A DNA stretch of 63,337 nt, filler included, from Stramenopiles sp. TOSAG23-6 (lineage: Eukaryota): NCBI GenBank assembly GCA_900128565.1. It is 13 parts of 13 records of this genome, joined end to end, with 100 filler letters (N's around TTAATTAATTAA, not from the genome) between each part and the next. Parts side by side here need not be neighbours in the genome. Positions count along the whole stretch, not along the records: positions 19,707 to 26,169 come from LT636693.1; 12 more parts are not named here. One strand, given 5' to 3'. Positions within the stretch are counted from its first letter, which is position 1, and every line of letters begins with the position of its first letter. The position numbers and the translations under genes are program-made. Under the pieces are notes generated by a model. It was given only the letters and a program-made list of their open reading frames with translations. It was not told where the DNA came from and did not search any database. This document shows, piece by piece, positions 1,111-58,890 of the stretch.

Positions 1111-4100
1111 TTATTGTACTACAGAGACTATAAACTGTAATGTCGAATACGGCGGAATATCTACAAAATTTGCACCACTTTTTATCCTGGATTTGCCATA
1201 GGCTGCTTTGGATGGGCAGGTAATTTTTCTTTTCCCACCAATTTTCATACACTATAAAGAAAATATTTTTTTGAAATTTTTTTGATTGTTTTTGTTAGGT
1301 ACAAAATTTACTATGAAAAAAAAAAAAAAAAAAAAATTTTTCAAAATATATTTGATATTTTGTTAGGTAAAAAATTAAATTGATGATGAAAACGAACATT
1401 CCTTGAATTCCTATATCCCATCCTTTAATCACTTCACCACGACCTAAGCGAAAACTAAATGGCTTTTTTCCAGATTTGTCAAAGATTTTTCCATTTTCTA
1501 AACGGCCCATGAATTTTTGTATCATATTTTTTAGAAAAAAAAACTGTTAGGTACAAAATTTACTATGAAAAAAAAATTGAAAAAAAAATTGAAAAAAAAA
1601 TTGAAAAAAAAAAACGCACTCATAAGAAACTTTCACTTTTTTCCTATCAATTACTAATGGTCCTTTTCCTATAATGATGTCTTCTGTCATTACACCAAGA
1701 CTCAATTTTTTAGTATTTTTAGTATTTTTAGTATTTTTTGTATTTTTAATATTTTTAATATTTTTTGTATTTTTTGTATTTTTTGTATTTTTACATTGAA
1801 CTTCAATATCATCATCAACATCAGTATTAATTTCGTATTTATCATTCATACGAGATTCCGTACCTAATAATTCTTTTTCGCGTTCCATTTTCTTTCGTTC
1901 TCTTTGACGTCGTTTTTTTTCCTGCTTTTTTTTTCGTTTCAACGAGTCAATCATTTCACCACGTATAAACATAAATCCAATTTCTTTAAGCTCATTACGA
2001 ATTGAATCTGCAGTGATCCAATCTTGAATATCTCTTGCTTTTTGTCTCAAAAGACATAAACGCTTTGCTTCCTGAAGACGAGAGTTTGTATTGTCAACAT
2101 CTACATTTGTTTTTATATTTGTTTTTATATTTATGTTTCTTGATTCTTTCTGAATGGTTGTTGTTTCTTTAGTTGTTGTATTGATATCCTCAGACACATC
2201 AAAATTGTCTTGATTATCATTGTTTGATATAATTCCCATCCAACTGGGCAATGTAGAGACTGACTTTCTTGTTGTAGTTCTATTACATGCACTGTAGCGT
2301 TGTGCGTTTTGTTTTGCTTGTAGTCTTTCCATGGGGGACATGAGCTTCACTTTTTTCCTAGACACCAAACGTCTCACTTGTTTCCTCTTGTAATTATTTT
2401 CTAAATCTTCGTTTTCTGAAAAAAAATAAATCGTACATGCTTTACGAATAGCTTCGCGTTTTTTTTCTTGTTCTTCCATATGCAATAACTCCAACTCTCG
2501 TTGCTCTTCTGCAGCACATTCACTATAAGCAAGTGCAAGGTCAAGTTCTTCAGCATATCGTTGCTTTACAGCTTCTTTTTCTTTTGCTGCTTCATGAATT
2601 AATTCTTTATGCCAATCCCATTCTTTATTTCGATTCATTATTCGTTCTTCAAGAAGTCTTTTCTCAGTTTCATGAAGACATTTTTCANGTAATGCATCGA
2701 CTTTGCGTTCCTTAAGTCTTTGCTCTTCAAGTTGTTCTAACCACACACTATGCTGTTTTTTTGCCATATCCATTCTACGTTTGCGCAATTCATTTTCATC
2801 TTCTTCTGCTTTCTTTGCAGCAATTTTCAAACGCGAAAATTCTTCAGCTAATTCTAATTCAATATCCTGTTTTCTTTTTTGTGCTTTAACATCCGCTAAA
2901 GCCCACAACTTCTCTCTATTAATTTGTGTTTGTTGAGCGTTTAAATTATGTTGGTGAATAGTGTTGAGAAGTTCCAATTCTTTTTCTCGTAGATCTTGAC
3001 GCTCTTTTTTCATCATCTTTGCATTTTGCTCTGCCTGTTTTAGTCGAATTTCGATTTGTTTTAAAGATTCCTCAGATTTCTTTTGTTGTTTCTTCATATT
3101 CGATTCATGTTGGACAATAGATTGTTTGTGTATTTCAAGTGCAATCTCTTTTTCCTTTTGCCATGCTCGTTCTTCTTCCATTAAATCAGATTCTGCAGCT
3201 GCACAATTTATCTCACCTTGACGAATGAGTTCACATTGATTATCATGCCTACGCTGTTGGTCTCTAGCTTTAAACAATTCAAGTTCTTCAAATGCTTTCT
3301 GTGTTACCTTTTTTTCACGCTCTCGCGCGATTTCTCTTTTTCGCATATTCGATTTAGCTCGTTCTTTAGATTCTTCATGAGCCCTCGCTGCTTTTATCTC
3401 CTGAAGTTTTTGCATTTCCATCCATTCCGTATGCATCTCTTCCTCCCTTTTCTTCTCTTTTTGACGGAGTTTTTCCATTTCATTGTCCCATTTCAGTAAA
3501 CGCTTCTTTTCATTATCGTGAGCAATGACACTTGAACGTTGAAAGCATTCTTCTCGCTCTAAATAATACTTCTTCATCCTCTCCCGTCTGCGTCCACGTT
3601 CAGCCTCTACATCACGTTCACGACGACGTTCGGCGAGAGCTTCTTTTTCTAACTTTTCCATTTTAGTTGCATGTGCATGTCTTTTTCTATATTTTGTAGA
3701 AATATTTCAAAAAAAATTCAATTTTTTTTTTATAAATTTGTTAGGTACAAAATGTTTTTACCAAAAAAAAAAAAAATAAATTCGAAATTGAAAAACGTAC
3801 AATGATTCTTTTCTGTCCAATGCTATTTGTTTGAGTCGTTCTTTTCGAGCTTGACGTTCTCGGTTTGCTGAACTATTATGTATTATGAAAAAATATTTTT
3901 TCCATTCAAATATCTCGTTAGATTCAAAATGCTTTACAAAAAAACAAAAAACAAATAATTTTGAAAACGTACATTTTTGTATGCGACTTCAAGTTTTTTC
4001 TTGGCTTTTTCTAATTCAATTTCTCTGATTTCTTTCCTTCTCAAAAGTTGTTCTGAAAGTTTTGCTTTCCGTTCTTTAATTATGATTTTATTTCGTTTTA

Positions 4101-6626: not shown

Positions 6627-7243
6627 ATACGTATAAAAACTTGGAGGAGAATCACAACCAACTTTAAGCATGGCATCTCTATGAATAAAAAGTTTCTTTT
6701 CCAACGAGTTTTCATGGATTATGAAAAAATATTTCAAAATTTTCTAAAAAAAAAATTGTTAGGTACAAAATTTTTTTACCAAAAAAAAAAAATATTTACA
6801 CAAAAAATTGAAATGAAAATTGTTAGGTACAAAATTTACTATGAAAAAAAAATAAATTCAAAATTGAAATGAAAACGTATAGCAATGTCTAAACCAATTA
6901 AGGAATTTAATGTGGAACATGTTCCTTCTTTTTTGTTGAAGCTTCGACGCGCGAAAGATTTTTTGGATGGATTATTTATTTCTACATCAAGTAAGGAATC
7001 AAATGCGGAACATTGTACGTCATAAGCAAATTTAGGTGTATCGAAGCTATCTCTAAGGGGATAAAAAGGTCTCAATGCGGAAACGGAAGAAAATTGAGAG
7101 TTACATTGAAAGTCAAATGTTGCCCTATGTACCGGTGTGTTCGGGCTCGATAATCCGTTACAAGGACTAGGGGAAAATATTTGAGCCTCCAAAGAGAAAA
7201 GAGGGCGAGTTATCGAAAGCGGCTCAATTTTCACTTCTTCCAT
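6627..7243 (-). CDS. Hypothetical protein, 3' partial (exons 7243-6881, 6713-6627)
   Basis: Two ORFs joined in frame by a family intron; next donor GTATGT at 6626. Confidence 0.55.
6714..6880 (-). other. Intron, AT-AT, 167 nt, duplicated branch core
   Basis: att gct|ATACGTTTTCA...TTCATAATCCAT|gaa aac tcg in frame. Confidence 0.7.
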
Positions 7244-19970: not shown

Positions 19971-20357
19971 ACTTTTCTACCTTTCAAATTCATTAGGTAC
20001 AAAATTTCGTATGAAAAAATAAAGAGTCCAGAGCAAAAACAGTCTAGATTCTGTAGAATAAATAAAGTTTGTTTTTGAAATCTAGTTTTTATTTGATGAC
20101 TGGTTTTAAAAAAACCTTTACAGGCATTAATATGAATACGTACTGTACCTAGTATTATACAACAATCTTACAAGTCACATTTGATTTTTTTTTTTTCAAT
20201 CTCGAATTTATTTTTCGTACGAAATTTTGTACCTAACGTGCTGAAAAATTATTATTTTTTTCAGAAAATAAAAGCATTCATATTTATTAATAAATAAAGG
20301 GAAGCTAAGGAATACTGAATTTTATTGATTTTTTTTAGGACCTACTACAAAGACCTA

Positions 20358-23985: not shown

Positions 23986-24435
23986 GTGTCGTCGGGCAAG
24001 TCGGGACTTTTTGGACTTTTTTAGTGAAAAATTCTTCAACAATTGATACTTTTTTATTATCGATCACTTCTTCTTATTGAATCAAATAAATTGAATAATC
24101 CAATCCCTACTAACTAGTAGTAGTAAAACATTCATTTTTTTTGGATTGATTTTTTTTCTTTTTGAATTTACTGGACAAATAATATAGTTTATAAAAAGTC
24201 TTAAGAGTCATTGCGAAACACGAAATATTCATAATCTATCAAATGTTTTTTTTTTGACCAATGTCGATGTCATATTTTGTTTTTTGTTATTATCGAGGAT
24301 AAATAAAATACAGGAGGATAATATATTATTCCCTATCAAGGAAATCTATTGGCTGTACAGTAAACTTGATTCAGCAGTACAATTTTTATTTGCGATCGAC
24401 ATTATTCATTGAACAATTCTTGAACCTAACGCAGA

Positions 24436-26092
24436 ATGACTTTGCATACGGATGTAGAGATGTCCTCTCTCAAACATCGGCGTGTGGATTTCCAGGAACA
24501 AAAAAAGAATCCAGATACAAGCTTGTTTGTAAAAGAAGTCCGAAGCCCTGCAAGTTTTGTGACTCCACATAACAACAAGAGTAGGAAAAATGGACTTTCT
24601 AAACAATTCTCATACAAAGAAGATACACCGAAACCTCAAAGTCGTATTGAAAAATTCCGTCAACATATAATTGGACCCAAAACAATGTCCTGGTCGGATA
24701 TCGTCACTACAATTCTATCCGCTTTCATTGTTTGTATGATCGCACACACGTTCAATTGTGTAAAGGGTGTTTTAATATTTGGAGATTATAAAAGCACTGA
24801 AGAGTTTGTACCATTAGCTGTAACAATTTATCATGGTACTTCCTTTATTACCGGACTGGCTGTTGTTCTCTATTCAGATTGTCCTATTGGAATTGGTGGC
24901 CCAAATATTAAACATGCTTTTCTTTTTGCTTCACTAATCGTTAAAAACATTGTAAAGGATGTTGTTGGTCACGTAAGTCCCACCGCCGGAGCACATCGTC
25001 GTCTTAGTGGATGTTTTATTTTTTTTCAAATTCGAAATATTGTTTCGTACGAAATTTTTTTTGTACCTAACAAATTTTAGTTTTTTTTTTTAAATATTTT
25101 TCCAAAATATATGAATATGTCTCGTTAGATGTTGACACTGAAGAAAAATTAATATCGACCTTGCTCGGGGCAATTCTTTTTACAAATTTGTTGTTTGGAG
25201 TAATTTGGTACATCCTTGGAAATTATAAGCTCACGAGGGTTGTACAATATATCCCATCTTTTGTGATTTCCGGTTTTATTTCATCTCTAGGGTATTTGAT
25301 CATTATTAAAGCTATCTTTATGTCAACTGAAAAGCACATTTCTTTTCAAATTGGAAGCATGCATGTGCGTCCTCTTATTGAACTAAAATTTTGGAGTTTA
25401 CTTTTACCTGCAATTGTACTAGGAATATTCATGTGGTATGTGAAACATAAGCACATTGGTAAACCGTTGTATACTATGCCTTTAATGATGTACGTTTTTA
25501 TTATGAATTTTTAATTTTTTTTTCATACGAAATTTTGTACCTAACATTTTTTTTGACAAACAAAAAACAAAAAAAAATATTTTTTCACATTAAATGGGTC
25601 TTCCTGTTCTCGCATGTTTTGTTACAATATATGCTCGAGGTTCGTCGATCGACACTGCCAGAAATGTATGTTTTATTTTTTTTTCAATTTCGATTTTTTT
25701 TTTCGTACGAAATTTTGTACCTAACAAAAATTAAGTTTTTTTTTTTTAAATATTTTTCCAAAATACATGGTGATTGGTTTTTTGATGAATTTGAAAAAGG
25801 AACATTTTATCACATTTGGTCAAAATTTAATCTAAAAAAAGTGAATATAATGGCAATATTAAAAATTTCAGGAAATGCATTCATCATAATACTTATTTTA
25901 AGTATCGATGTACGTTTTCATCATGAATTTATTAATTTAGTTTTTTTTTTCATACGAAATTTCGTACTTAACGATATTTTTCATGATTTCGTGTTTTTTT
26001 CACAATACATGTCTTATTGAAGCTTGTCGCATTAAGGAGAGAGTTTGAATTACAAGATATGGACTTTGATAAAGAAATGAGATTGAATGGAT
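24436..26092 (+). CDS. SLC26/SulP family anion transporter, 3' partial, at least 5 introns
   Basis: IGGPN, LTRVVQYIPSFVISGFISSLG and DMDFDKEMRLNG motifs; exons 24436-25008, 25113-25489, 25596-25665, 25769-25909, 26011-26092. Confidence 0.85.
25009..25112 (+). other. Intron, GG-AT (or GT-AT at 25007-25110), 104 nt
   Basis: agt|GGATGTTTTA...CCAAAATATAT|gaa tat gtc in frame. Confidence 0.7.
25490..25595 (+). other. Intron, GT-AT, 106 nt
   Basis: atg at|GTACGTTTTT...CACATTAAAT|g ggt ctt continues a TM helix. Confidence 0.8.
25666..25768 (+). other. Intron, GT-AT, 103 nt
   Basis: aga aat|GTATGTTTTA...CCAAAATACAT|ggt gat tgg. Confidence 0.85.
25910..26010 (+). other. Intron, GT-AT, 101 nt
   Basis: atc gat|GTACGTTTTCA...CACAATACAT|gtc tta restores SIDVLLKL...DMDFDKEMRLNG. 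Confidence 0.85.
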
Positions 26093-26744: not shown

Positions 26745-28541
26745 ATGTTTATTCGTATATCTATATTGATCTTACTACTTACAAAATCTACAATTGGACT
26801 ACAAAGGTCAACACCAAAGTCTCTCGTGAATGATGATACATGGAACCTGTCACGTGAACTTCGGAGTCTATCAAGTACACGCCTTATGTCCGTCCTCCAC
26901 CGTGCTGGATATTTGAATGTGAATTTGGGACAACTTTATAGTGCAAGTACTCCAAGTGATGAAAAACACAGTCAAAGTCCTCAAATAGTACAGGAAACAC
27001 ATGCTGCACATTCATGTGAAACTGTGACATTAATAACAAATAATCCAACCGATCTAGTGGGTGCTGCAGAAACTATTTCAAAATCTTTCATTGAAGTTGA
27101 CGCGAGTTCTGGACTCAATTCATTATCAAGTAAACTTGGACAACGTAATGGTATTGGTATGCATGATTCTGTAAAAGGAAAGGACGAAATTAAAAAGACA
27201 AAAAAGAAACTCAGTTGTAATTGCGACTCCTATGTACAAAAAAATCATGAATTTCAAAAAAAAATATTTCGTAGTAAATTTTGTACCTAACGGTTTTTTA
27301 TTATTTTTGGTAAAAAAAAAAAAATATTTTTTCACAATAGATAAATGTCAATGTAGAAAACAGTGCTTTTGTAAACTTCAAAGTGACGCCTTTGGTGGTA
27401 CTCAAGTATCAGCAAAAAACACAAAAAATGGATCAGGACAAGCTGGTGGAGCTGGTAATCCTGATCATCAATTTAAGTGCACTTGTTCATTTGAAGGAAT
27501 TGGGGGATACGTTTTCATTATGAGTTTCAAATTTATTTTTTTTTTCGTACGAAATTTTGTACCTAACATGTTTTATTCTACAATAAAAAAAAAATATTTC
27601 TCACAATATTTTGGTGGAATTACCGCAGGTGGGACAATGGACTGCGACTGTAAAATTGCGGATTGTACGTTTTCATTATGAATTTCGATTTTTTTTTTTT
27701 TTTTTGGTTTTTTATAAAAATTTTGTACCTAACCGATTTCGAATTTAATTTTTTTTTTACAATACATGTGCTTGTGAAAAACAATGTTTGTGTCGCCCAG
27801 AAAACGAATTACAGACAACAAGTGAAGATGGAATTTGTGATATTAAAGAAATGAAAACACCAGAAGATTGCTTGAAAGCAAGTCCTCCTGGAAATGTACT
27901 TTTTTATTATGAATTTCGATTTTTTTTTTTTTTTTTTTTTTGGTTTTTGGTTTTCATACGAAATTTTGTACCTAACTAATTTTGAATATTTTTTAAATAT
28001 TTTTTTACAATATATTGGACTCCTGCGACATGTTCAATCCCTGGAATTACTACAAGAGAAGAGTGTGAAAATGCAAAACCGATAAAAGGAAAATGTACGT
28101 GACAATCAGTTTTATTTTTGTTTTTTTTTAATGAAAAAATCCATACCTAACAATCCTGTTTTTTTCGGACAATCAAAAATATTTTTTCACAATATTTGGG
28201 AACCAGAACCACCCAAGGGTATCTGTACAATAAAAAAATTACCACACAATGCGGTTGATTGTAAAGCAGCGGAACCACCAGGGGTATGGTATAAAGATCA
28301 ACACATTTGTGATATACGCCCGCCATTGACTGAAGAAAAATGTGATAAAGTTATTCCAAAAGCGACATGGAAGAGTTATGAGACGTTTCGTTTTGAAACA
28401 CAAAAAAAAAAATCTCCAAAAAATGAAAATCACAATTTTTTTGATGAGAATACTTTTAATAATTCAAATGTAGATGACATCATTGACCCCATTGGTCTTG
28501 ATAAGGATGACGAAACTCTTCATTTTATGGGACTTGGGTGA
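26745..28541 (+). CDS. Secreted Cys-rich repeat protein, 6 exons
   Basis: Signal peptide; repeated CxC...CxCxKQCxC and C...C...PPG.W units restored by 5 introns. Confidence 0.75.
27234..27342 (+). other. Intron, GT-AT, 109 nt, ending AATAGAT with an AG bypassed
   Basis: tcc tat|GTACAAAA...CACAATAGAT|aaa tgt caa tgt gives CNCDSYKCQC. Confidence 0.7.
27507..27611 (+). other. Intron, AT-TT, 105 nt
   Basis: ggg gg|ATACGTTTTCA...CACAATATTT|t ggt gga gives GIGGGGITAGG; full internal motifs present. Confidence 0.65.
27665..27767 (+). other. Intron, GT-AT, 103 nt
   Basis: gat t|GTACGTTTTCA...TACAATACAT|gt gct tgt gives DCACEKQCLC. Confidence 0.85.
27896..28015 (+). other. Intron, GT-AT, 120 nt
   Basis: gga aat|GTACTTTTT...TACAATATAT|tgg act gives PPGNW. 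Confidence 0.8.
28095..28197 (+). other. Intron, GT-TT, 103 nt
   Basis: aaa t|GTACGTGA...CACAATATTT|gg gaa creates the repeat's conserved Trp (GKW, compare GNW and GVW). Confidence 0.75.
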
Positions 28542-31224: not shown

Positions 31225-32596
31225 ATGCCATCTACCTATTTGGAGAAACATGTAAAGAAGAAGAAAAAGGTGAAAGAACGAAATCGACAGCAACGTCTTC
31301 GTGTTGCAGAGCTCACAGATAGTTTGTATCAAGCACAGGAAGAAGCAGCAAGTGCCAACATTCGCTGTAATAATTTACAACGTCGTGTAAATCATCTCGA
31401 GCGTATGAGATCACAAGGACATTCACAACCAAATTCGGTGGGTACTCTTACAATGGCTATTCATAAGAAATCATTGGAAGACTCTGTGATAAATACTGAC
31501 GCTGATACACACAGAATGTTAGTTGAACTTCTTGAAGATACTCGAAGTGCTAAAAATAATTTTGCTTTTGAAATGAAACGAATTACAGAAGAACGGGAGG
31601 AAATTGCGCGTGATAAAGCTAAAATAGCTCAAATTCTACAACATAATCAAAATGGCGATTTGAAACAAGGTACGTTTTCATTATGAATTTCAAAAAACAA
31701 ATATTTTTTTTTTTTTGGTTTTCGTACGAAATTTTGTACCTAACAAATTTCGAATTTAATTTTTTGTACAATACATGTGTACACCATTGGAGTATTAGTT
31801 TCGCAAGTGAGATTCAATCAGACGTGATTCCTTTACAGGATAATATTAGTGCACTTGTCGAAGAACTACAAAAACGACAATTTACTGATACAAAAAAATT
31901 ACAACTACAATGGAAATATCTTTCTAAAGGTATTAAAAAACTTGAAAAAATGTACACTGACAAATGTATGTTTAATTTTAAAAATTTAATTTTAAAAATT
32001 TAATTTTTTTTTTATAGTAAATTTTGTACCTAACAAAAAAAAATTTACTAAAAAAAAAATATATATTTTCCTACAATACATGTCCAAAGAATGAAAATGG
32101 TTCATATTCATTTGTACCAAATCATATATTAGATGAAATTTCTACTGAGTATAAAGCGTTGATTCCAACTGCAATTCGCTGTGCAAAGGAAGAAATTTTA
32201 CAATTATCTTTCAAAAGTGAAAATAATGAAAATAATGAAAATAATGACAACAAAGAAACAAAGAATTTATTTGAAGATTTACAAGAAGAGTGTTGGGAAT
32301 TGAGATCTGAAATAGAAATGAAAAATACAAAATTAAAAAATATACAAGTAAAATATGAAAAAAATTCTTTAAAACTAAAATTATGTACAGATGGAAATGT
32401 CATTTTAAGTCAGAAATTAAAATCTGCCCATGAGCAAATTCAATCCTTACAAAATGAATTAAAACTTTCACAAAATACATTATTAAAAGAAGTCAAAGAG
32501 GCACCTGGAAGTCACACACAGATTATTAATAGCATGAGGCGGCAAATACGTGAAAGAATGAAATTAACAAAGCCACCAGAACAGGATGTTAGAATT
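31225..32596 (+). CDS. Coiled-coil protein, 3' partial, at least 3 exons
   Basis: Three ORFs joined in frame by introns 31670-31776 and 31966-32081. Confidence 0.65.
31670..31776 (+). other. Intron, GT-AT, 107 nt
   Basis: caa g|GTACGTTTTCA...TACAATACAT|gt gta cac. Confidence 0.8.
31966..32081 (+). other. Intron, GT-AT, 116 nt
   Basis: aaa t|GTATGTTTA...TACAATACAT|gt cca aag. Confidence 0.8.
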
Positions 32597-39435: not shown

Positions 39436-39787
39436 TACAACAAACGATTTCATCTCAACAAGATGAAATTGATAAATTGAAAAAGTCTAAAAAAGATTTA
39501 CAAAAAGAAAATAATTCACTACAAAAGCAATTTGATGATGAAAAATTAGAAAAATCGACTGTAAAGGATAGCATTATTTTGCATTGTATTGACAATGTTA
39601 AATTAAAACATAAAAATGGAACTGATCTATTATGTATGTTTTCAAAATTGAATGTAATTTTTTTTTTGTAGTAAATTTTGTACCTAACAAAAAAACTGAT
39701 TGTAAAGTATTTTTTCGCAATACATATACAGCAACTGAATTAAACGCTATGACGATATCTGAATTATTAGAAAAATGTTTACATTGA
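39436..39787 (+). CDS. Coiled-coil protein C-terminal fragment, 2 exons
   Basis: Exons joined in frame by intron 39634-39725. Confidence 0.55.
39634..39725 (+). other. Intron, GT-AT, 92 nt
   Basis: tta t|GTATGTTTTCA...CGCAATACAT|at aca gca in frame. Confidence 0.7.
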
Positions 39788-43348: not shown

Positions 43349-43654
43349 TAAACGTGCCATACTGAAACAAGTTAACATTAACATTTAAAACTTAAGAAAA
43401 TATTTCAGTTTTATTTATAGCTAATTAAAAAAATATTCAGCATCTCTGATTGCATTCAAATCTAAATCGCCTAACTTTGGAACTTCTGGGACGTTTTTTG
43501 CTCTTAATACTATATTATCCCGAAGATTTTGCAAAATAGGCTGAGAGTGTAATTCTATAAAAGCTTCGCGTAATTCTGAATTCATAATTTCCACATGTTC
43601 TGTGAAAAAATATTTTTTCTTTTAGGTAAAAAAATCGTTAGGTACAATATTTCG

Positions 43655-45818
43655 TATGCTTATTTTGTTTCTTTACTATTATTCGGTGGGGTGTCAGAAT
43701 ATTTGAGGTATACCCCTATAATATATTTGGGAGTGTTAGGGAGAATACTAACTCGAATTATTCTTCTCTTTGGGAATACTCTGTGGCAGATGCAACTCAT
43801 GCAGGTAACTTATGCGGTAGGTTCTGTCGGAGAAGTTATATTTTTTGCGTATATTTATCACTGTGTATGCAATGAAAGTGATTATCAAACGCTTACTTCC
43901 CGGGTTCAAGCATCGTATTTGTTGGCACACTTTCTTAGTGGATTATTTAGTGACTTTGCGTTGCACGTCTTGGGTGCTTCTATTCGCATATTATTTTGGA
44001 TATCTTTTACAAGTGTTTCAATTGCAGGTATCATTAGTCTATGCTATTTTACTCCAGTAATAGAAGTACGCTATGACGGAATATCGGACGATACAGCACC
44101 GTGTGAACATTTTGTGGAAGATGGAAAGAAAACATTTTTTATGAGCTGTTTTACAACTATTAGTAAAAAGTATTCGGCCTTGCAAGCTACGTTTTCGCTC
44201 TCATTACAACCTCGTTTCATGATATTTACTATTCTCTGGGTTCTTTTCAATGCAGTGTATCAAATAGTGAATGGATATGAACCGCAGTTATATAAAGATT
44301 TAACTGATAGATCGAGTTCACTTTCTCATTCAACAAAATCAGCTGATTTTAATGGGACGTTTTTGTCAATTCCATTACTACTAGGTTGTTTGGCATCATT
44401 GGTTCCAGGATATATTGAGAAATATCAAAATAATTCAAAATTTGGGGAATCTGGAAATAGTATATTAAAGCAACTTAGTTTTATTCATTGTAGTGTAGTT
44501 TTATCATTAATAGTATACGTTTTCACCATTTCAATTTTTACCTACATTTTTTTTCGTACGAAATTTTGTACCTAAGCAAAAAACGATTTTTTTTGAAATA
44601 TTTTTTCACAATACATGGTATCAATAAGTCTACTGGCTATAGTTATGTTTGCTACACGCTGCATAGCACTGGAAGAGGGACATAATATTGAGAATGATGA
44701 TAAATCAATCTTCAAAAATACCAATTTCCTATTGAGCTTGTTTAGTTTTACAATTTATGTACGTTTTGATTTTCATTTTCATTTTCATTTTGAATTTCAT
44801 TTTCTTTTTACAAAGAAAATTTTGTTTCTAACAAAATACCAAAGAAAACAAATACTAATTTTTAAAAATATTTTCTACAGTACAGGTTTGCGCATGGCAA
44901 TATTGTAATGCTATCTATGTCACAGAAGCAGCAAAAACTTCAAAAAAACGCATTTTTGCTTCGGTTTTTGTAATGATGAATATTTTATCATTAATTGTTC
45001 AATCTTTTCTTTCTTTTATGCTGACGTCATCGACATCGCCATTTCAAGACAAAACAACAATAGGAATTTATAAAAAATTAACTCTTGTTACATTCGGATC
45101 ATTCTTTGTCGTATGTATGTTTTATTTTTTTTTTTTTACCGAAAAAAAAAAAATCGAATTTGTTTTTCATACGAAATTTTGTACCTAACATTTTTCTTTT
45201 GAAATATTTTTCCAAAATACATGTATATTTCTTTTAGTATACCCACTGATGACTACATTAAAAAAAAAATGCAAAAAAGAAAAATTGGAATATCAAGAAG
45301 AATAGAAAGATTAAAAAATATGTAATTTTTCAAAAATGTACTACCAAAAATAATGAAATGTATGATGAAAATAATAAACAAAAGAGTTCAAATGACATGT
45401 TTTTCTTTATTTTCAATGTAAACATTTTTCTAATAATTCAGATATCGTCATAGCGTTTAATTCAGTTGCTGTATATGTATTGCGAAAAAATACTTTACAA
45501 TCAGTTTTTTTGTTAGGTACAAAATTTACTACAAAAAAAAAATTACATTCAATTTTGAAAACATACATAATAGATCAGTTCCATTTTTATGTTTTAATTT
45601 AACATTGTCAATACAATGCAAAATAATGCTATCCTTTACAGTCGATTTTTCTAATTTTTCATCATCAAATTGCTTTTGTAGTGAATTATTTTCTTTTTGT
45701 AAATCTTTTTTAGACTTTTTCAATTTATCAATTTCATCTTGTTGAGATGAAATCGTTTGTTGTAATGTATTTTGGAAAAATATTTCAAAAAAAAAAAAAC
45801 TAAAATTTGTTAGGTACA
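43655..45818 (+). repeat. Inverted duplicate of 39382-41545, carrying a 5'-truncated SLC19 copy at 43655-45305
   Basis: Positions map as p to 85200-p; identical ORFs appear on opposite strands. Confidence 0.95.
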
Positions 45819-45918: not shown

Positions 45919-47422
45919 TGAATATGTAGCAAATGAAGCTTCGGGAAAACACATTGTACGACGGCTAGAAAAAAATAAGAAGAATACAAATACATTGAAG
46001 AAGAAAGACAACAAGAGTAAGGTTCGGGTAGAGCATAAAAATGGTAATGTGAAAACAAATCTTGATCACAGTTTCATATCTGGAGTTGAGGTTGAACGCA
46101 GTGACATCACTAACTGTATTCAGCATATAAATAGGGCAACTGATGATTGGAAATTTAAAATTGAGCAGATACAAAAGTTGACACATTTTGTGAAGCGAAG
46201 TGAAGAACATCCAGAATTGTGGACAAAAAAAATATTAGTTCGTGTTATCAGTCCTTTACTAATTTCACAAGTACGCGATCTACGTTCAACTGTAGTACGC
46301 GCCACATGTGATTTGATAAATGCAATTATGGAAATTCTAAAGGCAAAAGCACGATTTATACTTCGAGAACTGTTTCCAGTAATATTTGATATTGTAGGGA
46401 GTGGTAACTCTGTAATTGCGGACTATGCGCGAAATTCGTGTGTTTCTGTAGTAAAGCATGTACATGCTACAATAACATTACTCTGCATTTCAAATATGGC
46501 AACATCATCTAAAAATTGTTCAATTCGTCTTCAAGCGATAGAATTATTTCATATTGTAATTAATACATGGGAATATTCAAAGATCAATTCTCAGGCACAA
46601 CTTTTACAAAATACATTACAGGTAGCACTTGATGACGTATCTGGTGAAGTTCGTAAAAAAGCAAGACGATATTTTGTAAAGTACAGCAATCTTTTCCCTC
46701 AAAGAGCTGATAATATATGTACGTTTTATATGAATTTCTAATTTAATTTTTTTTCATACGGAATTTCGTACCTAACGATTTTAATTTTTGAAATATGTTT
46801 TCATAATATATGCCGCATGGTCACAGGTCGCACTGCGAGATTACTAGATAAAATGAGTATAAAATCTTTACAATTAGGCTTAAAAGATGACAAATTTCCT
46901 CCAAACATTCCAAATAATAATTTACTTGAGCCTCCTAAGCGTCTTTTAGCTTCAAAAAATAATGATCTTGAATGTAGTGAGAAGACTTCAAGTAAAGATA
47001 AAAATCTTTCAATAAAAGGTGAAACATTTACTGACAAAAATGGATATAAAAAGAATAATTCAATAAAAGGTGAAACATTTACTGACAAAAATGGATATAA
47101 AAAGAATAGTTCAAGTTCGATTAATTTTATCCGACGACTTGGAAAACAAATACAAATTGCACACAAATTACATATTGAAGATATGATTTGTTCACTAGGT
47201 AAAGAATTGAAACTTATGGAGGATTTTGAGGAAAAAATGAAGATGGAAGGAGAAAATTTCATTGACGGAGAAAAAAAAATACATGGCGATGTTGTTGCAT
47301 ATGCAATTGAAATGACAAAACGCTTAGAAACACGTCAAATGATGAATGAAATTTCCGGCAATGCGTTGAGGAAGCTAGCTTCGGAAACAATACGATTGGG
47401 AACAACTTCATCATCTTTATAA
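45919..47422 (+). CDS. CLASP N-terminal / TOG domain protein, 5' partial, 2 exons
   Basis: DDWKFKIEQI, VRDLRSTVVRATC and ALDDVSGEVRKKAR motifs. Confidence 0.8.
46719..46811 (+). other. Intron, GT-AT, 93 nt
   Basis: ata t|GTACGTTTTA...CATAATATAT|gc cgc atg joins two ORFs in frame. Confidence 0.8.
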
Positions 47423-47544
47423 TGGAAACTTTATAAAATGGCTTTAACCACAAGTACAAGGTTTCAATTTTTGAAATGAAAAATAAAATTTAAATATTTT
47501 TTTTGATACGAAATTCCGTACCTAACATTTTTTTTGTCTACTTT

Positions 47545-48293
47545 TTATTTATGTTTCCGTCGAGAATAACCATTCAGTGGAGCTTTATCTATATAGTTGA
47601 GTCGCAGAGCTTCAGATAGGTGCGAAGAAAATAGGCCTTTTTGTCTAGCATGTACTGTGAAGAAATTATAGAAAACAGAAAATTCGTTAAGTACGCAATT
47701 TCCTATGAAAAAAAAAGATTTGAAATGAAAGATGAAAAGTGAAATTTTTTTTTTTTAATTTGTTAGGTACGGAATTTCGTACTAAAAAAAAACTAAATTC
47801 GAAAAATTGAAAAAAATAAACGTACATGTATTTTCAGTAATTTCTTTTCTTCCTCCGAAACTAAATGTCCAGAATACGCCAAGTCTTCTTGCATTGCCGT
47901 TTTGTGTGGATCTGATCCTCGAAGAATGAAGAGCGAATTTGCCATATTTGTGGAGGACATTCCATGCGGTACTCCTGACACTGTTTTACGTGTTTGCTGA
48001 GCGAGGTTTTTTCGTTTATTGTATATGTCACGAGATCTATGTTTTATATAATATTTCCCCCTTTTTTTTTTATTCTTTTTTGTCATTGATAACTTTGCTT
48101 TTATTTCTTCCAGTTCTGCAGTTAGTTGGTTGCGTCTAATGTTTAACTCATCCACATCAACAACTTTTTGTCTTGTATCCTCCACATCAAAAATCTTCTG
48201 GTTGTCCGCCATGGGCGGCTCACCTGGACTATCTGATTTATGTTCTATTTCATGGGGATATGCTCCATGTACACGCTGTGGGTGTAAAAACAT
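47545..48293 (-). CDS. Hypothetical protein, 2 exons
   Basis: Exons 48293-47826 and 47649-47545 join in frame. Confidence 0.6.
47650..47825 (-). other. Intron, GT-AT, 176 nt, two branch cores
   Basis: ata cat|GTACGTTTA...CACAGTACAT|gct aga. Confidence 0.65.
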
Positions 48294-48713
48294 AATACCT
48301 TTGAGAGTGTACTGTTGGGTTGGTCTAAGTTAAAATCAAAATCTTTGGATGATCACAGATCAGATCTTCAAACAAAATGTAAGACAATTCGGATTCTCTC
48401 AAACCTCTCAAACGTTTGACTACTGGATTTTTATGACCGTTTCATCCTTTTCAGTTNCTTTTTTTTTTNCTTTTTTTTTTTCAGACTGAGTCTCCGACGA
48501 CCTCACATACAATTATCAATCTTAAGTCTTGACTTGTGTGTTTTGCATCAACGAAAGAGACGACACATTCTTAAACTAAAAGAATATTCACAAGTCTATT
48601 AGGACCTATACATATATATATACAGAATCTGGAACTTTGAACGGTTCTACCACTTATTAAAGTGTTATAGAATAAAGTTAACTTCAGAACCCTAACCCTA
48701 AACATATAGTAGA

Positions 48714-48956
48714 ATGTCTAGCGACTCTAGTCAGAAAAGTATCTTAAATGCTGAAAGTCTTGAGGCCCTGAACAAGCAAGTTGAAGAAATGCAAACATCA
48801 GATAAAGAGTGGATACACTACCACCCTGACTTGGAAAAAGTTATATCTTTATTTGTCAAAAACGTCCTGAGAGAGCAGCCGGAAAACATCAAAGATTTTG
48901 CAGTCGAATTTTTCACGAGTGAGAATCTAAAGAGCATGGTCAAGAATTCTCCTTAA
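48714..48956 (+). CDS. RIIa / Dpy-30-type dimerisation-docking domain protein (RIIAD1-like)
   Basis: HPDLEKVISLFVKNVLREQPENIKDFAVEFFT. Confidence 0.8.
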   Translation: MSSDSSQKSILNAESLEALNKQVEEMQTSDKEWIHYHPDLEKVISLFVKNVLREQPENIKDFAVEFFTSENLKSMVKNSP

Positions 48957-49101
48957 ATATTTTTGAAATAAATTCTTTTAGATACCTATGGATTCTTTTA
49001 TATACCTTGTTACATTTTTATTACTTTCTCATTAAGAATTCTCATACTATTTCTACGGATTTCTACGAGACACCCCAGGGTTATACTATTTCTACGAGAC
49101 A

Positions 49102-49144
49102 CCCTAAACCCTAACCCTAACCCCTAACCCTAGTACCCTAACCC
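49102..49144 (+). repeat. Interstitial telomere-like (CCCTAA)n cluster
   Basis: accctaaaccctaaccctaacccctaaccctagtaccctaaccc. Confidence 0.8.
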
Positions 49145-49417
49145 AAACAATACAAAAATTGGGAAAAATAAAAAAACAATACAAAAATTGGGAAAAATAA
49201 AAAAAAATTGATATAAATATGGAAGTAATGAACTAATGAATACAAATGAAAAATTTTTAATCTACACTTGAGAAAATACAAAATTACTAGTAGTATAAAA
49301 AACAGTGGGTATAGAGAACATTTCAAGGTTTTTTTTTTTATTGTTACGTGTCTTTATCTGTACACTGTGAGATTCCGTACCATTTTTTTGTATTTAAACG
49401 TGAAACACTACTTCTTA

Positions 49418-49795
49418 TCAACTCCAGGCTGACATTGTTTCGTGTTTATAGCCCTTCCCAATGGTGTTCGATGTCTCGGCGATTTTTTGCCCTGTAGGTT
49501 CTGTTTCCAAAACGTCAGGGGGTCCTGAGCCTCCTGTCGAAGTTGTTCTTTTTTTCCATTTCGGAGCGTCAGATTCCACCGAGTCAAAATTGTGATTTGA
49601 TTTTCTCATTATCATTATGATTACTACATTCCACAATGTTGAGAATACTAAAGTTGAAAATATAATTGCTAAAGAAGTTATTACTGGGCAATACTGTGTC
49701 CCGCACGATCCACTTTCGAAGTCACTCTTTTTTATGGCCATTTGTATCAACTCTCGAAGTCTAATTTCTTTCTCTTCGTTTGAGCACGTCGACAT
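49418..49795 (-). CDS. Small single-TM hypothetical protein
   Basis: Central hydrophobic helix. Confidence 0.5.
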   Translation of the reverse strand: MSTCSNEEKEIRLRELIQMAIKKSDFESGSCGTQYCPVITSLAIIFSTLVFSTLWNVVIIMIMRKSNHNFDSVESDAPKWKKRTTSTGGSGPPDVLETEPTGQKIAETSNTIGKGYKHETMSAWS

Positions 49796-49980
49796 ACTGT
49801 TGCGTAAGTTTACTCAAAATATGTCCAACTGTCTCTATGGTGTTCGACAGATATTAATGCACTGTATATAAGATGAAGGATAGAAATGGGAATCTCTTTT
49901 TTTATCAATAAAATAGAGGTAGTACCGTATACACACAACTTTTAAAGAAAACTTTCGGTTGCGGTTGCTCCTCTATTTTT

Positions 49981-49994
49981 AAACCCTAACCCTA
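49981..49994. promoter_or_regulatory. Telo-box-like element in a divergent promoter
   Basis: AAACCCTAACCCTA between divergent genes. Confidence 0.45.
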
Positions 49995-50213
49995 GCTAGT
50001 AGCTTTTACGTCAATAAACTAGTAGTCTGATATATTTTGATGACGCGCACAGAAAACGTTCATTTTTCGATTTGTCAATCGACACAAACTCCACGGGAGA
50101 TCGATCCATCGAATGGGAATAATTGCATTCATAAACATTTGATCATTTTCTAGATTTATAGTTGATTTCACCTTGCGTATTTTCAAAGTCATTGCATAAA
50201 GCATACTTTGATC

Positions 50214-51873
50214 ATGGCAGTCAATTCATCGCCAGCCAGTTCTATAAAACTTCGGAACGACGTATTACTTTTGATCAAATATCAGTCGAAGCGCTTCCAT
50301 GAGCAGCTTACAAAGCTTGGAAAATTAACTACAGATAATAATAAGATTCAACGTTCGTTGAGCGGTGCGACATTTGACAATAGTGTTTTGAATGTTTTTT
50401 CTACAACGTCGTCGTCTTCTCTATTAAGTAAAAGCAAAACTCAGAAGAAGAGAGTCACTGCCGAATCGAAAAAGTCGACCGTAAATGTGAAAAAAACTAA
50501 CTCTAATAATAGTAATAAGGGTCCAATGAAACGCAAAGAGGAACTTACATGTTTGTTACAGAGACAGGGCAAGAAACCTTTTGTAAATTTAAAAAAAATG
50601 GGTCAGTTTATTCAATTCATAGATGAACCAGATAGAGTCGCAAACAATTTTATGGAAGCAGCTCTCGTCGCACTTTTTCATTCACCACAACCACAACTTG
50701 AAGATTTTTGTGGACGCTTAGGTATGAAGCGTTTAGCCGCTATATTAACATTTTATGGTACGTGTGAAGAAGAAAGATTCAACGAAAAAATTCCATCAAA
50801 TGTTTTGAAAATCATCGACAAAATTATGTCCTCTGAGATTGATCTTCATAAAATCAAAAAGTACGGAAGTGCTGCAAAAGTAATTGGCACATATTATACA
50901 ACTGATGTGAATCAAAGTCGTGTGAGTACTTCTTTGAGAAAGCAAGCAGATAGAATTCTTAAGAAGCTTATAGACATTAAAACTTTAGATAAGGAGAAAA
51001 AAGCAGAAGCGAAAGCTAAAGAATTAAGAAAAATTGAGGAAAGAAAGAAAAAAAAAGAGAGGAAAAGAAAAATAAAGGAAGCAGAGAGAGAAGAAAATGA
51101 AAAGATCAAGAAACGTAAAGTAGATAAATCTCTATTAACACAAAATCAGAAAATGGATACACTGCCAGGGTTAGGGTTAGGAGGTAGTGAATCTCTCAAT
51201 GCGATGAACGTTCAGGACATGGATCTTTCTGTTGAAACGAAATCGTCAAATAGTAAATCTGCGAGTAACAGTCAATCGTCTACACCAATGGCTTTGCAAT
51301 CTATTGACAGAAATACAAACAATACTCAAAATACTCAAAATACTCAAAATAATAAAAGATCTGTTCGATGGGCCGATGAGCATGGGGGAGAATTGGAAGC
51401 AGTAAAAACATTTGAAAAAGAAAACAAAGACGATGCACCGGGTACTCCGGTTCCTGAAATGGAATCTAAGCGTGATTGGAATGGAAAAAAAGTTATTTCT
51501 TTGAGTAAAAAAGAACAGGGGCTTCGAATGAGACGACAAGAAAATATCTTTAATAATCAGTTAATACGTTGGAGAGAGCCTCCGAAAATCATACCTTGTC
51601 AATTTGAATATACAGATACCAATCAAGAGCAAGACACTCCGTATGATGAATTCGGTTCGAATAGTACAGAACGAATAAAATTATCAAACTCAGAGGATTT
51701 GCATACTCCTGAGGTTGGAGCGAGAATACCAGACAATCCATCAAATCATATAGTAATAGAGAGTGCACTGTCAGGTCCAAATAAGTATGAGTGCAAAGAA
51801 ACAAAGTTTAGCAAATACGTAACAGAACCACAACAGAATCAATATCAACCACCACAACAAAATCGTTATCAGC

Positions 51874-51905
<32 letters not shown>

Positions 51906-52046
51906 ACTGGTTATCAATCACAGCAAAGTTATTACCGACCACAACAACAAAATTATTATCAGCAACAACAACAACCAAGGTATGATCAAGGATACAGTAA
52001 TCAGCAACAGTATTCATATAATAATCAAAATAATAGACAGTATTAA
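50214..52046 (+). CDS. PNUTS/PPP1R10-like PP1-binding nuclear protein with a Q/Y-rich tail
   Basis: TFIIS-N-like helical region, RVxW-type motif KRSVRWAD, IRWREPP and poly-Q C-terminus. Confidence 0.6.
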
Positions 52047-52454
52047 TAACAAAACAAGTTTCGTTGAATTGAATAAATGAATTAAGTTCTATAGAAAGAT
52101 GATGAAAAAATATTTCAAAAAAAAACGTTAGGTACAACATTTCGTACGAAAAAATAAATTCGAATTTGAAATGAAAACGTGATGCTCATATTTTTTGTTC
52201 GCTACAAAATTTTCATAATAAAAGAAATGCTACACAAAAATACACGAGTTTCATTGATATAAAGAGTGAAACAATTTCCATAATTCACTTATAAAAAACA
52301 AAATTTTAATTACATTTCATTTATAATGTTATATGTTAACTAAGATCAAATCCTNNNNNNNNNNNNNNNNNNNNNNNNNNNNNNNNNNNNNNNNNNNNTT
52401 AATTAATTAANNNNNNNNNNNNNNNNNNNNNNNNNNNNNNNNNNNNNNNNNNNN

Positions 52455-55400
52455 TGAATATGTAGCAAATGAAGCTTCGGGAAAACACATTGTACGACGG
52501 CTAGAAAAAAATAAGAAGAATACAAATACATTGAAGAAGAAAGACAACAAGAGTAAGGTTCGGGTAGAGCATAAAAATGGTAATGTGAAAACAAATCTTG
52601 ATCACAGTTTCATATCTGGAGTTGAGGTTGAACGCAGTGACATCACTAACTGTATTCAGCATATAAATAGGGCAACTGATGATTGGAAATTTAAAATTGA
52701 GCAGATACAAAAGTTGACACATTTTGTGAAGCGAAGTGAAGAACATCCAGAATTGTGGACAAAAAAAATATTAGTTCGTGTTATCAGTCCTTTACTAATT
52801 TCACAAGTACGCGATCTACGTTCAACTGTAGTACGCGCCACATGTGATTTGATAAATGCAATTATGGAAATTCTAAAGGCAAAAGCACGATTTATACTTC
52901 GAGAACTGTTTCCAGTAATATTTGATATTGTAGGGAGTGGTAACTCTGTAATTGCGGACTATGCGCGAAATTCGTGTGTTTCTGTAGTAAAGCATGTACA
53001 TGCTACAATAACATTACTCTGCATTTCAAATATGGCAACATCATCTAAAAATTGTTCAATTCGTCTTCAAGCGATAGAATTATTTCATATTGTAATTAAT
53101 ACATGGGAATATTCAAAGATCAATTCTCAGGCACAACTTTTACAAAATACATTACAGGTAGCACTTGATGACGTATCTGGTGAAGTTCGTAAAAAAGCAA
53201 GACGATATTTTGTAAAGTACAGCAATCTTTTCCCTCAAAGAGCTGATAATATATGTACGTTTTATATGAATTTCTAATTTAATTTTTTTTCATACGGAAT
53301 TTCGTACCTAACGATTTTAATTTTTGAAATATGTTTTCATAATATATGCCGCATGGTCACAGGTCGCACTGCGAGATTACTAGATAAAATGAGTATAAAA
53401 TCTTTACAATTAGGCTTAAAAGATGACAAATTTCCTCCAAACATTCCAAATAATAATTTACTTGAGCCTCCTAAGCGTCTTTTAGCTTCAAAAAATAATG
53501 ATCTTGAATGTAGTGAGAAGACTTCAAGTAAAGATAAAAATCTTTCAATAAAAGGTGAAACATTTACTGACAAAAATGGATATAAAAAGAATAATTCAAT
53601 AAAAGGTGAAACATTTACTGACAAAAATGGATATAAAAAGAATAGTTCAAGTTCGATTAATTTTATCCGACGACTTGGAAAACAAATACAAATTGCACAC
53701 AAATTACATATTGAAGATATGATTTGTTCACTAGGTAAAGAATTGAAACTTATGGAGGATTTTGAGGAAAAAATGAAGATGGAAGGAGAAAATTTCATTG
53801 ACGGAGAAAAAAAAATACATGGCGATGTTGTTGCATATGCAATTGAAATGACAAAACGCTTAGAAACACGTCAAATGATGAATGAAATTTCCGGCAATGC
53901 GTTGAGGAAGCTAGCTTCGGAAACAATACGATTGGGAACAACTTCATCATCTTTATAATGGAAACTTTATAAAATGGCTTTAACCACAAGTACAAGGTTT
54001 CAATTTTTGAAATGAAAAATAAAATTTAAATATTTTTTTTGATACGAAATTCCGTACCTAACATTTTTTTTGTCTACTTTTTATTTATGTTTCCGTCGAG
54101 AATAACCATTCAGTGGAGCTTTATCTATATAGTTGAGTCGCAGAGCTTCAGATAGGTGCGAAGAAAATAGGCCTTTTTGTCTAGCATGTACTGTGAAGAA
54201 ATTATAGAAAACAGAAAATTCGTTAAGTACGCAATTTCCTATGAAAAAAAAAGATTTGAAATGAAAGATGAAAAGTGAAATTTTTTTTTTTTAATTTGTT
54301 AGGTACGGAATTTCGTACTAAAAAAAAACTAAATTCGAAAAATTGAAAAAAATAAACGTACATGTATTTTCAGTAATTTCTTTTCTTCCTCCGAAACTAA
54401 ATGTCCAGAATACGCCAAGTCTTCTTGCATTGCCGTTTTGTGTGGATCTGATCCTCGAAGAATGAAGAGCGAATTTGCCATATTTGTGGAGGACATTCCA
54501 TGCGGTACTCCTGACACTGTTTTACGTGTTTGCTGAGCGAGGTTTTTTCGTTTATTGTATATGTCACGAGATCTATGTTTTATATAATATTTCCCCCTTT
54601 TTTTTTTATTCTTTTTTGTCATTGATAACTTTGCTTTTATTTCTTCCAGTTCTGCAGTTAGTTGGTTGCGTCTAATGTTTAACTCATCCACATCAACAAC
54701 TTTTTGTCTTGTATCCTCCACATCAAAAATCTTCTGGTTGTCCGCCATGGGCGGCTCACCTGGACTATCTGATTTATGTTCTATTTCATGGGGATATGCT
54801 CCATGTACACGCTGTGGGTGTAAAAACATAATACCTTTGAGAGTGTACTGTTGGGTTGGTCTAAGTTAAAATCAAAATCTTTGGATGATCACAGATCAGA
54901 TCTTCAAACAAAATGTAAGACAATTCGGATTCTCTCAAACCTCTCAAACGTTTGACTACTGGATTTTTATGACCGTTTCATCCTTTTCAGTTNCTTTTTT
55001 TTTTTCTTTTTTTTTTTCAGACTGAGTCTCCGACGACCTCACATACAATTATCAATCTTAAGTCTTGACTTGTGTGTTTTGCATCAACGAAAGAGACGAC
55101 ACATTCTTAAACTAAAAGAATATTCACAAGTCTATTAGGACCTATACATATATATATACAGAATCTGGAACTTTGAACGGTTCTACCACTTATTAAAGTG
55201 TTATAGAATAAAGTTAACTTCAGAACCCTAACCCTAAACATATAGTAGAATGTCTAGCGACTCTAGTCAGAAAAGTATCTTAAATGCTGAAAGTCTTGAG
55301 GCCCTGAACAAGCAAGTTGAAGAAATGCAAACATCAGATAAAGAGTGGATACACTACCACCCTGACTTGGAAAAAGTTATATCTTTATTTGTCAAAAACG

Positions 55401-58400: not shown

Positions 58401-58409
58401 GTTATCAGC

Positions 58410-58441
<32 letters not shown>

Positions 58442-58890
58442 ACTGGTTATCAATCACAGCAAAGTTATTACCGACCACAACAACAAAATTATTATCAGCA
58501 ACAACAACAACCAAGGTATGATCAAGGATACAGTAATCAGCAACAGTATTCATATAATAATCAAAATAATAGACAGTATTAATAACAAAACAAGTTTCGT
58601 TGAATTGAATAAATGAATTAAGTTCTATAGAAAGATGATGAAAAAATATTTCAAAAAAAAACGTTAGGTACAACATTTCGTACGAAAAAATAAATTCGAA
58701 TTTGAAATGAAAACGTGATGCTCATATTTTTTGTTCGCTACAAAATTTTCATAATAAAAGAAATGCTACACAAAAATACACGAGTTTCATTGATATAAAG
58801 AGTGAAACAATTTCCATAATTCACTTATAAAAAACAAAATTTTAATTACATTTCATTTATAATGTTATATGTTAACTAAGATCAAATCCT
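52455..58890 (+). repeat. Duplicate contig of 45919-52354 (offset 6536), with copies of the CLASP-like, RIIa, TM and PNUTS-like genes
   Basis: Same ORF set at +6536, same contig ends and a shared N position. Confidence 0.97.

Follow-up and report, generated by a model that had tools for sequence, protein, structure and literature searches.

The window, a stretch of 63,337 nt including filler, consists of contigs of ~6.5 kb joined by N spacers, and its source assembly comprises 21 Mb in 6236 contigs. Its best named protein matches are of mixed origin, with stramenopiles among them. The motif examined here lies in a sulfate-permease-like gene, in which 416 codons are open once four introns of one family are removed. 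An Rfam search of the window gave no match. The features of this gene and the other cores discussed below are as follows.

24430..26092, + strand: sulfate-permease-like host gene, continuing beyond the contig end
25009..25112, + strand: family intron with a GG donor and an AT end
25490..25595, + strand: family intron, GT-AT
25663..25674, + strand: donor site AAT/GTATGTTTT (slash, exon-intron boundary), complementary to the 5' end of the genome's own U1, -9.6 kcal/mol
25664..25665, + strand: exonic AT, left copy of a 2-nt duplication
25666..25768, + strand: GT-AT intron holding the core, 103 nt, phase 0
25701..25712, + strand: perfect 12-bp DNA palindrome TTTCGTACGAAA, centred on GTAC, overlapping the near-palindrome below
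25704..25725, + strand: core motif CGTACGAAATTTTGTACCTAAC, the intron core block
25704-25709, + strand: subfamily-variable part of the core, -20 to -15
25705..25720, + strand: 16-nt near-palindrome, possible 6-bp stem, without covariation
25710-25725, + strand: near-invariant part of the core, -14 to +1, 16 nt
25721..25725, + strand: CTAAC branch signal, predicted branch adenosine at 25724
25748..25768, + strand: 3' block AAATATTTTTCCAAAATAC plus AT (right duplicate, predicted 3' splice site)
25910..26010, + strand: family intron, GT-AT, with a core variant ending in CTTAAC
27270..27291, + strand: TAGTAAA-subtype core
32013-32034 and 39667-39688, + strand: TAGTAAA-subtype cores
6822-6843 and 1294-1315, - strand: TAGTAAA-subtype cores
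46755..46776, + strand: core variant TACGGAATTTCGTA
47505-47526, + strand: further core variant
1247..1397, - strand: double-core intron of 151 nt in an FKBP-like gene

With up to three mismatches allowed, the 20-mer had 43 matches on both strands of the window, a count that includes repeats from duplicated contigs, and none in each of five block shuffles. Genome-wide, the 16-mer AAATTTTGTACCTAAC occurs in 6431 exact copies (inflated by duplicated contigs), compared with one copy of the reversed control. The contig at 39384-45818 is a long inverted duplication and the contigs at 45919-52354 and 52455-58890 are nearly identical, and such redundancy in the assembly raises copy counts. The variants named in the original prediction were found near 46757 and 47507, and the TAGTAAA subtype at 1313 and 6841 (both - strand), 27272, 32015, and 39669. 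The same prediction described an extended 20-nt core. The motif is present, but its invariant part is 16 nt (-14 to +1) and not 20. The 5' arm varies blockwise in a way that distinguishes subfamilies, whereas -14 to +1 is fixed.

The core belongs to a family of introns of ~100 nt with the layout GTAYGTTTT … core … CA(C/A)AATAC + NN. In a sample of 60 genome stretches plus the window (661 kb in all), 208 of 264 cores were located between a GTAYGTTTT donor and the 3' block CA(C/A)AATAC followed by two bases, with a median intron length of 101 nt. Removal of the intron left an open frame in 173 of the 208, versus 40-48 when the 3' end was shifted by 1 or 2 nt. Since the frame cannot exclude shifts of 3 nt, FTHFS, urocanase, and PurB were also compared with their bacterial homologs. 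The frame was open for 11 of the 12 introns called, and nine had the top or a tied score; a GT-AG alternative was absent in four introns and scored lower in six (in one by 1 point), one intron was itself GT-AG, and one of the 12 was mis-called. Pfam positions are continuous across the FTHFS junctions (299 to 300 and 496 to 497). Thus, by frame and by homology, exact removal restores the protein. Nine seawater metatranscriptome runs contain small shares of this genome. Four of them were examined for exon joints, and among the joints listed none was an exon joint, those shown being chimeras of intron copies. One poly(A) RNA contig ends at 25112, where the called junction predicts, which is indirect evidence for that junction.

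Sets anchored on the core (the 208 introns, and 169 filtered introns used below) overstate its conservation, and the core was therefore recounted on 157 introns chosen by their ends only. Shared end and core blocks were found in 139 of these. The original prediction that most introns carry the core agrees with this set, in which 128 of 157 match the 16-nt core with at most one mismatch and 18 have a decayed core (at least four mismatches). What that prediction missed is that the introns end mostly in AT, not AG: 106 of the 157 are GT–AT and 6 are GT–AG. The six GT-AG introns are all of the listed AG ends (8 of 157 at the upper reading), and the family does not follow the YAG of U2-type introns. 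U12-type introns have the donor RTATCCTT and the branch TCCTTAAC; the donor GTAYGTTTT and the branch GTACCTAAC do not conform to that consensus either. Canonical donors and TACTAAC occur less often than chance predicts in the 661 kb, and a core follows 100 of the 110 strong donors; thus the family now appears to supply nearly all detectable introns. The donor begins with GT in 150 of the 169 introns. The other 19 start with AT, GC, GA, GG, or TT and keep the rest of the U1-complementary site intact, for example at 25009 and 27506 in the window and in sampled stretches L009, L021, L028, and L036.

The two bases at the intron end usually repeat the last two bases of the exon. In 106 of the 169 filtered introns both copies are AT. 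Among the 37 introns of that set with other ends, 22 equal the exon end, where 2.7 would be expected (0 of 10,000 permutations), and in the core-independent set of 157 introns the exon is matched by 21 of the 41 ends other than AT. The excess matching is confined to 2 nt. A locus-specific flank signature is given as the criterion for target-site duplications in the cited part of a study of introners, which also mentions introners that lack terminal inverted repeats (bioRxiv 2022.06.06.494994). Here no terminal inverted repeats of at least 6 nt were found, only GTA(Y)..(A)TAC of 3-4 nt. From the 2-nt duplication and the family likeness we infer mobility: an introner-like element of ~100 nt (GTAY...ATAC) probably entered coding sequence with a 2-nt target duplication, AT being preferred, and would have spread by a cut-and-paste-like route. 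The core had no match in metagenome and viral contigs, and neither a relative carrying it nor an empty site was found. A search with one transposase family gave five matches, and neither a long element nor a transposase with the family's ends was found at the two distinct loci read.

The original prediction also offered a transposase-binding palindrome, which is plausible given the 2-nt flanking duplications. It would make TTTCGTACGAAA and GTACG..YGTAC double-stranded DNA sites at which a transposase or another dimeric protein acted in copying. Such sites are compatible with an introner-like origin, and the perfect 12-bp palindrome, the GTA..TAC ends, and the Harbinger-type transposase genes of this genome all suit them. 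However, the left half of the palindrome is the most variable part of the motif, the terminal inverted repeats measure just 3-4 nt, the two transposase loci that were read carry no element ends, and selection for copying would not maintain the block once inserted. We therefore hold a role as a DNA site to be possible but not probable. The Harbinger-type (DDE_Tnp_4) genes are at L096:389-1648 (+) and L097:1246-2769 (-), and one of them has a convergent second open reading frame. Considered as partners of the family, they were rejected on the lack of element ends near these loci.

The donor of the family is matched by the genome's U1. A search in which 41 of 253 candidates were scored identified a single U1 gene, present on two contigs and full length (E 8e-12; 54 bits, which is below the Rfam cut-off of 69.5). 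Its 5' end, AAACGUACAUGG, differs from the Rfam consensus AUACUUACCUGG at positions 2, 5, and 9, and is complementary to AT/GTACGTTT. The three changed positions face donor positions +7, +4, and -1, where they pair in 97%, 94%, and 92% of the 169 introns, versus 3%, 6%, and 2% for a canonical U1. The mean U1-donor duplex is -9.5 kcal/mol compared with -2.2 kcal/mol for canonical U1, and the genome's own U1 is better on 164 of 169 donors. Through the change facing -1, U1 reads the exonic T, which belongs to the duplicated AT. For a second, canonical U1 we found three exact and 55 one-mismatch motifs, which is the level of the control (68), and six loci scanned had no Rfam match. Loop 1 of U5 and the ACAGAGA box of U6 are canonical. 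U1 is thus the snRNA that changed, apparently fitted to the donors of the family. The rewritten U1 is predicted from this complementarity to bind AT/GTAYGTTT, after which the unchanged ACAGAGA box of U6 would take over at +4 to +6. U5, U2, U1, and U4 form a head-to-tail row at L003:9-645 (contig C1146, also C6122), separated by 2, 23, and 5 nt, which suggests one polycistronic transcript; U6 is elsewhere (L004).

Where the two copies of the duplication match, as in the 106 AT/AT introns of 169, the same mRNA would result if the left duplicate and the element were spliced out (an AT...AC-like intron) instead of the element and the right duplicate (GT...AT), and A-C intron ends are chemically tolerated according to the cited part of a yeast structural study (bioRxiv 212811). 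However, U1 pairs canonically with G as intron +1, and this pairing register argues against an AT-AC reading. Where the copies differ, comparison with homologs points to the left one as exon in intron 2 of FTHFS and intron 1 of urocanase, a stop arises in 2 of the 32 mismatched introns if the right copy is taken as exon, and the RNA contig end at 25112 fits the GT register, if indirectly. A synonymy test of the two registers was borderline (8 of 26 versus 4.5 expected, p 0.06). On this evidence the AT...AC register is improbable, and the introns are treated below as GT...AT.

Within the core, judging from its substitutions, only CTAAC behaves like a branch signal, with -20 to -15 marking subfamilies. 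The median distances of CTAAC are 58 nt to the donor and 42 nt to the 3' end. Its second A is substituted in 18 genome copies, versus 103 for C(-4), and by eye CTAAC is kept in 10 of 18 decayed cores. Seven of the 18 have neither CTAAC nor CTAAT, and some of these are maybe false calls or assembly errors; among 12 copies with a broken CTAAC, five have another one within 55 nt downstream (by eye). The sequence and the substitution pattern fit a YUNAY branch context upstream of a U-rich tract. The narrow distance, the rare loss of the second A, and the retention in decayed cores support the earlier placement of the branch at CTAAC, with 25724 as the putative branch adenosine in the host gene.

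U2, in contrast, is not altered as had been proposed. A search for U2 and U12 found U2 unmodified in both copies, with the canonical sequence GUGUAGUA, and no U12 among the 42 of 1595 candidates scored; U6atac was likewise not found among the 45 of 736 candidates scored in this incomplete assembly. The yeast-type strong branch box is TACTAAC. In a pairing model, U2 binds TACCTAAC at -0.2 kcal/mol (four pairs) or -0.3 kcal/mol (with C bulged) versus -4.1 kcal/mol for the yeast box, so the extra C gains nothing, and the yeast form of the branch is found in only six copies. TACCTAAC is therefore best read, as far as its sequence can tell, as an element-derived ...TTTGTAC that adjoins CTAAC, and not as a lengthened yeast box. 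The unchanged U2 would pair with only ~4 bases of CUAAC, branching at the second A. The family resembles the yeast box and the U12-type box in that its branch block hardly varies and keeps a fixed distance, but their conservation comes from snRNA complementarity, while U2 here pairs ~4 bases and no U12 was found. The length of the motif does recall the long branch signals of U12-type introns, and the assembly is incomplete, both of which leave some room for an altered U2 (GUAGGUA), a U12-like RNA, or another small RNA that pairs with the whole core. However, none of U1, U2, U4, U5, and U6 pairs with the core better than with shuffles, and with U2 canonical and U12 and U6atac missing from the candidates scored, we consider such pairing very improbable. 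A complementary guide RNA was rejected as a candidate: the bulge-less complement was found 21 times, and the 12 of these that were read resemble mutated cores on the opposite strand.

The original prediction described a 6-bp stem in the core and a TAGTAAA subtype that breaks it, and both descriptions are accurate: in the common variants the stem folds at -4.1 or -6.2 kcal/mol, whereas the subtype does not fold. The stem is also part of the minimum-energy fold of the whole intron, and it would mask two GTAC sites that the genome's own U1 could bind. A conserved protein-bound RNA hairpin that positions the branch would account for these properties. However, among 33 distinct window copies no pair was changed on both sides, and pairing was 72.7% compared with 72.8% after shuffling. 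A slide by two columns pairs equally well, the mutual information between the partners in the stem does not exceed 0.067 bits across the 169 introns, the closing G-C pair is absent in 22 of the 33 copies, and the TAGTAAA subtype lacks the stem altogether. The hairpin is thus largely refuted, and we give it little credence. The upstream palindrome is instead probably inherited element sequence, kept by descent and some selection, being neither a conserved RNA hairpin nor the partner of an altered U2. The GTAC sites of the two core arms (25705-25709 and 25716-25720), to which U1 could pair at -6.6 and -5.1 kcal/mol, might act as decoy donors or provide a second site for U1.

Between -14 and -4, the core is conserved at ~90–99% in the core-independent intron set, with T or C at -8. 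In the core-selected set it has 0.01-0.04 mismatches per site versus ~0.24 in the mid blocks, in both end-type families. The spacers are highly diverse (57 copies have 46 distinct collapsed left spacers), so pure descent is a poor account of the constant core. The core also decays with the age of the copy: mismatches at -7 to +1 rise from 0.011 to 0.041 per site where the flanking duplication has diverged. The conservation of -14 to -4 might be due to descent, to a DNA-binding protein, or to an RNA-binding splicing factor. The last would make this block a single-stranded RNA signal by which a lineage-specific or altered protein defines the branch, making up for the weak U2 pairing and the missing AG. 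The conservation in both sets, the weak pairing with U2 and the rarity of the yeast-type form, and a U2AF65 that is present but divergent are what such a signal would predict. However, 18 of the 157 introns have a decayed core, mismatches accumulate in older copies, and in one family the 3' GAAATATTT block is conserved as strongly as the core. A protein-read RNA signal is therefore a minority possibility, which is compatible with the branch-site reading of the core.

At the 3' end, the right duplicate, usually AT, is the predicted splice site. In the cited part of the yeast P complex study, G(-1) pairs with G(+1), A(-2) pairs with the branch A, and Gln1594 of Prp8 reads the pyrimidine at -3 (bioRxiv 212811). 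In the family, A(-2) is kept in 87% and Y(-3) in 97% of the 3' ends, and the alpha-finger stretch of Prp8 is unchanged, suggesting that it is mainly the terminal pair that is relaxed, with G(-1) replaced. An AG downstream of the branch is skipped in 48 of 169 introns, and thus the upstream 3' block probably sets the 3' site. The intron at 25666-25768 has an in-frame AG at 25734-25735, which as an alternative 3' end is compatible with the frame. The Prp8 gene (L049:2225-9651, - strand, contig C84) is apparently intronless. Of 1357 columns with at least 90% conservation across 120 homologs, 73 are different in its product (5.4%, versus 0.7-1.8% in six named stramenopile hits). Among these differences are two in the RNase H beta-hairpin and a KGM to PFL change beside N bases; the excess may reflect general long-branch divergence. 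A divergent U2AF65 (L091:238-2199, - strand, contig C433) has an RS region, two RRMs, and a C-terminal UHM, and both RRMs match the first-RRM part of the model. Searches of the genome for SF1-HH, U2AF35, and SF3b1 gave no match, and since the essential SF3b1 is equally absent from the results, the lack of SF1 and U2AF35 is uninformative. The best KH match, considered as SF1, has four KH-like repeats and by inspection is not SF1.

Taken together, the core is probably the branch-site block of an introner-like family whose introns would be spliced by the major spliceosome and read by a rewritten U1. A more far-reaching version is that a mobile element replaced the introns of this lineage while the spliceosome was re-tuned on three fronts, with a U1 changed to recognise the element end together with its target duplication, a 16-nt branch signal that a new or altered protein reads instead of strong U2 pairing, and an AG-independent second step aided by Prp8 changes at positions fixed elsewhere. 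We regard this version as rather unlikely as a whole; if true, it would give the clearest example of adaptation by a core snRNP to a transposon that makes introns.

The closest known cases, as far as the cited parts of the reports describe them, are the introns of Fritillaria and the U1 of Entamoeba. Fritillaria borealis and F. pellucida have non-canonical, transposon-like introns that are mostly non-GT-AG, with AT as the commonest 3' end, and their cited description includes a duplicated U2AF and donor recognition attributed to m6A on U1 (PMC13326754). As in our family, most introns there escape GT-AG, a short motif occurs twice, ahead of the donor and at the end of the intron, and splicing is by the U2 spliceosome with no minor spliceosome (PMC13326754). 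However, Fritillaria donors are described as mostly non-GT (AG/AC, AG/AT) with a YAY triplet as the repeat, and the cited text attributes recognition to m6A and describes no divergent U1 gene. Here donors are GT, the repeat is 2 nt, the U1 sequence itself has changed, and a single stereotyped family, in which the branch core is fixed, predominates. Chrysochromulina, another aquatic protist, has short repeated introns in coding sequence, with locus-specific flank duplication and exact restoration of the frame (bioRxiv 2022.06.06.494994; PMC11282704). The duplication is 4 nt in the cited example, whereas here it is 2 nt, the 3' site is mostly non-AG, the spacers are very diverse, and no canonical intron class is detectable in the 661-kb sample. 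In Entamoeba and Mastigamoeba, U1 5' ends have coevolved with atypical donor consensus sequences to which they are complementary, and such changes are described as rare in the part cited (bioRxiv 2022.06.08.495308). There, three changes are spread across two lineages (bioRxiv 2022.06.08.495308), while three are found in one U1 here; unlike in those lineages as described, one of them faces the exonic -1 T that the duplication supplies, and the donors are those of a repeated non-AG family. Our literature search, which left most subscription journals and supplements (introner family tables) uncovered, found no report of a GT-AT introner-like family with a fitted U1. A U1 rewritten to fit a GT–AT family is thus what is new here, and the branch core alone, ordinary to curious, is less striking than the original prediction held.

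A rewritten U1 would be a rare sign of the splicing machinery adapting to a mobile element. Its match to the donor and to an exonic base derived from the duplication raises the question of whether the machinery follows intron invasions or permits them. With the GT-AG rule broken genome-wide and the GT donor kept, the genome offers a natural setting in which to test directly what G(-1) does in exon ligation. For thousands of its introns, gene models built on AG ends would be wrong.

Several copies depart from the usual layout. Cores without a nearby donor (window 19990-20240 and 43635-43660) are apparently in intergenic or 5' regions, and they are possibly UTR introns, long introns, or orphan copies. 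A family intron at L042:4996-5080 (+) has intact ends and lacks the core, either by a true deletion or by an assembly shortcut in poly-T. Two tandem cores occur in one intron at window 6714-6880 (-), 1247-1397 (-), and ~54190-54360 (-), and in L008, L034, and L038; these might be nested insertions or internal duplications, and the downstream core is sometimes the more decayed. For the intron at 1247..1397, in a gene that we take to be FKBP-like, three 3' ends keep the downstream peptide in frame, and the AT end adds no extra residue.
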